A stretch of 63,018 nt of DNA from a virus: the UHGV virus genome UHGV-0170870. The stretch is one strand, 5' to 3'. Numbering within the stretch: the stretch's first letter is position 1; every line of letters begins with the position of its first letter. The position numbers and the translations under genes were made by a program. Positions 8,334 through 8,383 of this stretch are shown here, piece after piece. Under the pieces are notes generated by a model. The model was given only the letters and a program-made list of their open reading frames with translations, ran no database searches and had not been told where the DNA came from.

Positions 8334-8383
8334 CTGATCTTGTGAGTCGAAATACCTAACTCGACTCACAGGACTCACAATCG
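8334..8383. promoter_or_regulatory. operator-like repeat cluster (TGTGAGTCGA-N10-TCGACTCACA plus two direct GACTCACA copies)
   Basis: Perfect 10-bp inverted repeat with 10-bp spacer, followed by two more direct copies of the half-site, between DUF932-like and DUF3846-like genes. Confidence 0.4.

Follow-up and report, generated by a model that had tools for sequence, protein, structure and literature searches.

Operator and iteron arrays are made up of short direct repeats together with an inverted copy, and are bound by one regulator; iteron plasmids carry their iterons in combination with an inverted-repeat operator, and the origin of satellite phage P4 has octamer repeats. Stem-loops between cistrons, attenuators and leaky terminators occur in phage early operons, as in lambda tR1, and in the alphaproteobacterial puf operon. 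Here we describe a cluster of octamers, GACTCACA, located between a DUF932-family gene and a DUF3846-like gene of the virus genome UHGV-0170870, a stretch of 63,018 bp that is referred to below in its entirety as the window, and that is a temperate myovirus-like prophage of Bradyrhizobium. The cluster is a short-repeat cis-regulatory element of an ordinary kind, overlapping an intercistronic stem-loop. It resembles operator- and iteron-type arrays, such as the Rep operators of iteron plasmids or the sites of the ribbon-helix-helix (RHH) proteins omega and ParG, in that its units are short, identical, both direct and inverted, and about one helical turn apart, in that conservation is limited to the units while the spacers drift, and in its position just upstream of a gene. 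It differs from them in the size of the units (8-11 bp) and in lying inside an operon instead of at its start, and neither a promoter nor a cognate gene was identified for it. We read the cluster as an array of phased sites for a sequence-specific DNA-binding protein, encoded either by the phage or by its host, and put the probability of this reading at about 45%.

The octamer GACTCACA has four exact copies in the window, one inverted and three direct, and all of them fall inside 8341-8390; the array sequence over 8334-8391 is ctgatcTTGTGAGTCGAaatacctaacTCGACTCACAgGACTCACAatcGACTCACAaag, and its parts are listed in Table 1. As the preliminary description had stated, the cluster contains a 10-bp inverted repeat with a 10-bp spacer: TGTGAGTCGA (8341-8350) and TCGACTCACA (8361-8370) match at 10/10 positions around a spacer of 10 nt, and the repeat can be lengthened to 13 nt (8338-8350 and 8361-8373) with a single T:G position. 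Taken together, the direct copies make up three imperfect tandem units of the 11-mer TCGACTCACAA (8361-8391); the middle one is devoid of TC, and the third (8381-8391) is perfectly complementary to 8340-8350 and stops 17 nt short of the DUF3846 ATG. The two further direct copies that had been placed within 50 bp are indeed there, starting at 8372 and 8383, but the end coordinate of 8383 given for the cluster cuts off the last copy, the true end being 8390 for the octamer and 8391 for the 11-mer; similarly, the intergenic gap, described as 85 bp long, measures 84 bp (8324-8407). Four copies of any 8-mer within 60 bp were obtained in 0/200 dinucleotide-preserving shuffles of the whole window. 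One-mismatch and palindrome searches yielded no second GACTCACA-like site in the window, where one-mismatch variants of the octamer are under-represented (21 vs ~50 expected). The octamers start at 0, +22, +31 and +42, and the resulting spacings of 22, 9 and 11 bp would put all four sites near one face of the helix.

The closest relative of the DUF3846 protein, P0136 (75% amino acid identity), is encoded by a 915-bp contig, L168, in which the gap reads CTTGTGAGTCG-13 nt-GACTCACg-a-GACTCACA-atc-GACTCACA, so that all four elements are found at the same offsets as in the window. Between the two phages, 31/32 octamer positions are identical, as opposed to 25/52 of the remaining gap positions (Fisher p=1e-6) and to 39-42% of the third codon positions in the flanking genes; the left-arm segment CTTGTGAGTCG is identical at 11/11 positions. 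Identical units and their spacing are thus conserved while the spacers diverge, as in a protein-binding repeat array. It could be argued that the cluster is a neutral by-product, in which a hairpin arm was triplicated by replication slippage and the extra copies have no function: the direct copies do form an imperfect tandem, and the array is absent from most relatives. However, the copies and their spacing were kept in L168 even though neutral positions are only ~40-48% identical, and such purifying selection on all four copies and on their spacing leads us to reject slippage, which we consider extremely improbable. The comparison therefore supports, at the level of sequence conservation, a role of the cluster as a functional cis element. 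To this extent the earlier proposal that the downstream genes are controlled by a multimeric DNA-binding site or by an RNA structure is borne out, given that neutral sites have diverged by ~60%, while neither of its two options is singled out. In L168, the array is also preceded by an extra G+C-rich hairpin (ACGACCCGCG...CGCGGGTCGT), which follows the DUF932 stop and lies in a 33-nt segment that is missing from the window; the presence of this separate hairpin makes the array an added module, distinct from the hairpin typical of the family.

If the cluster is bound by protein, the DUF3846 leader would harbor a module of four phased GACTCACA elements, one inverted and three direct. Two subunits would sit on the inverted pair, with centres two helical turns apart, and further subunits would join cooperatively on the two extra direct copies, each one turn apart. 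We infer that such occupancy would act at the DNA level and would set the amount of transcription that continues past DUF932 into DUF3846 and into the early and replication genes further downstream, while the transcribed inverted pair would also form a stem-loop of ~-21 kcal/mol at the position occupied by a hairpin or terminator in the relatives.

In the sense transcript, a stable hairpin does follow directly after the upstream open reading frame (ORF): the predicted stem-loop has a free energy of -21 to -25 kcal/mol (z=-3.9, with 0/200 shuffles as good), and the corresponding fold in L168 has z=-3.0. It begins 14 nt past the DUF932 stop, and as a stable stem-loop placed after the first gene it resembles attenuators of the lambda tR1 type and stabilising hairpins of the puf type, from which it differs by the lack of a U-tract, by its 10-nt loop and ~46% G+C stem, and by the two copies of the 3' arm that remain unused in the fold. 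Neither the G+C-rich stem with a 3-8-nt loop nor the T-tract of an intrinsic terminator is present, since the tail, CTCACAATCG, has 1 T in 8, and no terminator was called at the array in a scan of 6900-9500; terminators in the late region of the phage are G+C-rich, with tetraloops and T-tails. A stem that is unusually A/T-rich for this genome suggests that selection has acted on sequence and not on stability. The RNA ensemble gives a probability of ~1.0 that the left arm is paired with copy 1; copies 2 and 3 were considered as alternative partners and rejected, with p ~0 and a cost of 7-9.5 kcal/mol more. The prediction leaves copies 2 and 3 single-stranded, although their conservation equals that of the paired copies, and because the left arm pairs with copy 1, the hairpin alone fails to explain the constraint on them.

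An RNA-level function nevertheless has to be weighed against the binding of protein to DNA. The sense stem-loop formed by the inverted copy and copy 1 could serve as an attenuator, a processing site or a 3'-end stabiliser that uncouples DUF932 from the downstream genes, and copies 2 and 3 (GACUCACA, single-stranded, in an A/C-rich leader with C16 A16 G9 T6 over 8361-8407) could be targets of an RNA-binding protein or small RNA, or an unstructured enhancer for the weak ribosome-binding site of DUF3846. The stability of the fold speaks for such a function, and so do the relatives. In a set of 40 non-redundant DUF932 relatives (29-83% identical), among which the gap sequence is not alignable, hairpins of -18 kcal/mol or lower are found within 80 nt of the DUF932 stop in 75% of cases, compared with 32% of coding-sequence controls (p=4e-7); in many of them the hairpin is a canonical intrinsic terminator with just 20-35 nt left to the next start codon, which is too little room for a new promoter, and the sense hairpin is the stronger one in 27 relatives v 13 in which the antisense one prevails (p=0.006). 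A leaky terminator or attenuator after DUF932 is a family trait. Moreover, the next two gaps of the window contain similar long-stem hairpins with 9-12-nt loops, and the stem differs between the window and L168 by one compensatory change, A-U to U-A, and two U-A/U-G changes that are compatible with pairing on the plus strand only. On the other hand, 4 of 15 pairs are broken in one phage or the other, and covariation drawn from two sequences is not significant; a hairpin needs two arms, whereas four copies are conserved; L168 already possesses a hairpin of its own elsewhere in the gap; a T-tract is lacking; the plus and minus strands of the window fold equally well; and no match to Rfam was obtained anywhere in the window. 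We therefore rank the phased protein-binding array ahead of an RNA-level element, which comes second and which we regard as rather unlikely to be the principal function. The two are not mutually exclusive, and an RNA contribution alongside the DNA array is likely.

Each copy also contains GACTC or GAGTC, and the four octamers are thus four GANTC sites of the CcrM methyltransferase, which raises the question of whether the array could be an epigenetic sensor, in which CcrM and GcrA, or the hemimethylated state of fresh phage DNA, would gate DUF3846 and the replication genes according to full or hemimethylation. In Caulobacter, the sigma-70 cofactor GcrA favours GANTC in the YGAKTCK context (PMC4647560); TGAGTCG ranks third of 32 NGANTCN sequences for GcrA signal in chromatin immunoprecipitation and is one of two GcrA boxes in the mipZ promoter (PMC4647560, PMC9976885), and such boxes act at about -20/-30 or at +5 to +30 (PMC9976885). 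In Bradyrhizobium diazoefficiens, which has ccrM, 99.8% of GANTC sites are methylated (PMC4840208), and a GcrA-dependent prophage operon was reported in Brevundimonas (PMC7987155). Nowhere in the window do GANTC sites lie as densely as in the array, with 4 in 44 bp, and the motif is depleted overall (96 observed vs 219 expected). In the window as in L168, 3/4 copies have TGAGTCG on one of their strands, in agreement with YGAKTCK, although this match was noticed after several known motifs had been tried. Clustering of GANTC in TGAGTCG is shared with the Caulobacter promoters, but the array differs from them in that no core promoter was found and that the conserved unit, GACTCAC[A] of 8-11 nt, is longer than the site of GcrA or CcrM; most GcrA promoters also have a single box as opposed to four sites here. 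Furthermore, the copy that fails YGAKTCK is not the same one in the window and L168, relatives without the array have no GANTC in the gap, and no GcrA gene was found in the window with a peptide query and a regular expression. We consider methylation-coupled control, which would be a particular form of action at the DNA level, improbable. Less probable still is a replication origin, or iteron set, comparable to the P4 octamers or to the iterons and operator of iteron plasmids, for a phage initiator such as the C-terminal part of the PrimPol-AAA_25 helicase (11299-13758). Direct repeats at about one helical turn with an inverted copy around an A/T-rich centre would suit it, as would the replication genes 2.9 kb downstream, but the units are short and just four in number, neither an A/T-rich unwinding region nor DnaA boxes adjoin them, and a better candidate for an origin or partition site is found at 15290-15700, where a much more extensive set of repeats is combined with A/T-rich tracts.

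Several findings weigh against the binding of a protein to the array. L168 is the single independent comparator that carries it, whereas it is absent from L169 and L170, the DUF3846 proteins of which are 71% and 64% identical, from L047-L054, and from DUF932 relatives at 66-83% identity; the array is lineage-specific. It is located exactly where the relatives have their RNA hairpins or terminators, and the compensatory and plus-strand-only changes in its stem are compatible with pairing in RNA. The scan of 6900-9500 detected no sigma-70 promoter at the array, CTTGAC is not conserved in L168, and an A/T-rich unwinding region of the kind expected at an origin is not present. Scans of the early genes with Pfam, PHROG and NCBIfam revealed no recognisable helix-turn-helix (HTH) or RHH protein near the array, which does not prove that there is none. 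Finally, the model of the DUF3846 protein, which has a high predicted local distance difference test (pLDDT) score (Table 1), is mostly beta, has no solved relative and is unlike DNA-binding folds; owing to this lack of likeness, it gives no support for autoregulation by DUF3846. A candidate binder might be the 208-aa protein at 10628-11254, whose homologue in L170 has a faint HTH_17 match. Likenesses to CRP, LexA, CtrA and DnaA-box sites, judged by eye, were dropped for unfit spacing or sequence.

Table 1. Coordinates of the octamer array and of neighbouring features in the window
Feature	Coordinates	Strand	Remarks
DUF932-family gene	7106..8323	+	first rightward early gene, upstream of array
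CTTGAC, -35-like hexamer upstream of array	8327..8332	+	seen in sequence; no promoter in scan; not conserved in L168; probably not functional
Left arm TCTTGTGAGTCGA	8338..8350	+	holds inverted octamer TGTGAGTC (8341-8348, minus strand), CcrM site GAGTC (8344-8348), context TGAGTCG
Spacer/loop AATACCTAAC	8351..8360	+	10 nt, A/T-rich; weakly conserved in L168 apart from TAAC
Right arm TCGACTCACAGGA	8361..8373	+	holds direct copy 1 (GACTCACA, 8363-8370), GANTC 8363-8367
Direct copy 2 GACTCACA	8372..8379	+	GANTC 8372-8376, minus-strand context TGAGTCC; identical in L168 at +31
Direct copy 3, full 11-mer TCGACTCACAA	8381..8391	+	octamer 8383-8390; GANTC 8383-8387; identical in L168 at +42
DUF3846-like gene	8408..8812	+	array in its 5' leader; model pLDDT 95.7, no PDB fold match
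Second intercistronic stem-loop	8820..8852	+	12-bp stem, 9-nt loop, no T-tract, no octamer repeats; build resembles array stem-loop
Third intercistronic stem-loop	9380..9413	+	11-bp stem, ~12-nt loop

Arrays of the same octamer are also present elsewhere. An exact-pattern scan of viral contigs, in which a 16-base pattern is expected to match tens of times by chance, retrieved GACTCACA arrays from L060, L061, L062, L069, L078, L087, L088, L090, L092, L104, L124, L146 and L162. This unrelated family has 6-7 copies of (AT)GACTCACA(A) in a non-coding region of ~650 bp that precedes the genes for small and large terminase-like proteins. Its layout is similar to that in the window, an inverted copy being separated by 13 A/T-rich nt from tandem copies that recur every 10 bp, but its G+C content is 48-54% and there is no GANTC depletion. 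A binder common to both was considered and discarded, as a family A DNA polymerase (30% identity) is the sole shared protein and the weak matches amount to noise. The common octamer may be a coincidence; what the family shows is that other phages, too, have non-coding DNA elements of such build, a point in favour of the DNA-site reading. At L078 5840-6030, L069 4354-4560, L061 2770-2940 and related loci, 6-7 ATGACTCACA(A) copies are accompanied by CACCCACAA-type repeats, and these arrays may be packaging or origin sites that make use of the same octamer. When phage and plasmid records were searched by BLAST with the region and with the 60-bp array, no close relative and no match to the array came up. 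In the window itself, the ~400-bp non-coding region at 15290-15700 has at least 14 copies of (G)ACCTTCC / GGAAGGT(C/T) in both orientations, interspersed among A/T-rich tracts (cgtattgataaacaacaaaaaaagcac; cgtattgatctgaaagc), and looks like an origin or partition-site array; a weak ParA-like gene is found at 18818-19465.

Other intercistronic structures were seen near DUF932 genes. The stem of the 9380-9413 hairpin (CGCACGGGTGA...TCACCCGTGCG) recurs with another loop at L050 2962-2996, directly after DUF932 in a contig without a DUF3846 gene; it seems that a hairpin moves together with the gene module that follows it, suggesting that modules have their boundaries immediately upstream of such hairpins. 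In the gap after DUF932, L042 has a long tandem GGTGATCCAGATCCA... array behind a canonical terminator (~4205-4330), and L028 has a duplicated TGCAATCGTGAGC overlapping a hairpin arm (~2868-2920). Recurrence of CTCAC before ribosome-binding sites in the relatives was examined and set aside, the 8 cases observed vs 5.7 expected being not significant.

The identity of the flanking genes as DUF932-like and DUF3846-like, proposed earlier, is upheld by Pfam (E=2e-7 for DUF932 and E=1.4e-4 for DUF3846, the latter under the Pfam cut-off); a literature search on both families returned no function for either. DUF932 is the first gene of the rightward early operon, because genes at 298-6978 run leftward and those from 7106 to ~52000 rightward. 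In the divergent early promoter region between them (6985-7051), an extended -10-like TGCTAGAAT (7021-7029) is overlapped by GAATC (7026-7030), a GANTC site, and flanked by direct copies of CTCCTACCAA at 6985-6994 and 7042-7051, a pair that is likely a separate operator; the consensus scan passed over this -10-like sequence because its -35 is poor. The phage encodes a gpA-type large terminase, a lambda-type portal, an E-type major capsid protein, a tail sheath and a tape measure protein, as well as a tyrosine integrase, a family A DNA polymerase, a DUF2800/PD-(D/E)XK nuclease, an SNF2 helicase, a RuvC-like resolvase and a PrimPol-AAA_25 primase-helicase. Beside the integrase gene (53888-55018), a fragment like the 3' half of a tRNA (ggctcgaacctggga...) lies in a long hairpin at 53619-53887; no complete tRNA was called there, or anywhere in the window by the tRNA scan, and the fragment is probably an attP core matching a host tRNA gene. 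A 40-bp tandem repeat (56473-56565; 2.3 copies, 98% identity) is located inside a 614-aa ORF (55993-57837) that matches phage pyrophosphatase-like PHROGs. With regard to methylation, the 195-aa protein at 61009-61596 on the minus strand has an IITNPPF motif and matches PHROG 799 'DNA methyltransferase' (E=4e-36), with no sequence match in Pfam, NCBIfam or PDB; this putative methyltransferase may be relevant to a methylation-based reading of the array. The 20400-23250 region has a G+C content of 55-57% and 23 GANTC sites in 2.8 kb, ~2x the expectation, in comparison with ~0.35x in the rest of the phage; most of its genes point leftward, the sole family match among them is to DUF6926, under the Pfam cutoff (26.5 v 27 bits), and the region looks like cargo recently acquired from a background without CcrM pressure.

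Records with the same element include L004-L006, L055 and L056. An identical element of ~63 kb is integrated in a 7.5-Mb Bradyrhizobium chromosome, and no variation in the copy number of the array was seen among identical prophage copies, the integrated chromosomal copies L055 and L056 being identical. Contigs of ~63 kb with 100% identity are deposited under the labels Streptomyces iakyrus, S. xylophagus and Phycicoccus jejuensis, and protein fragments of the element appear in records labelled E. coli, Klebsiella, Serratia, Aspergillus fumigatus and Lacticaseibacillus. This spread over unrelated labels indicates a prophage of a contaminant-prone Bradyrhizobium (viridifuturi). It is likely to be rediscovered in mislabelled assemblies, and recognising the array as part of a Bradyrhizobium prophage helps to avoid misattribution. 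Since each repeat overlaps a CcrM site, a link between host methylation and prophage gene control is directly testable. If the array is indeed a regulator-binding site, it could be used as a 60-bp bait to fish out the regulator by pull-down, and would mark a site inside the early operon at which expression is controlled in a widespread group of ~60-kb alphaproteobacterial phages.
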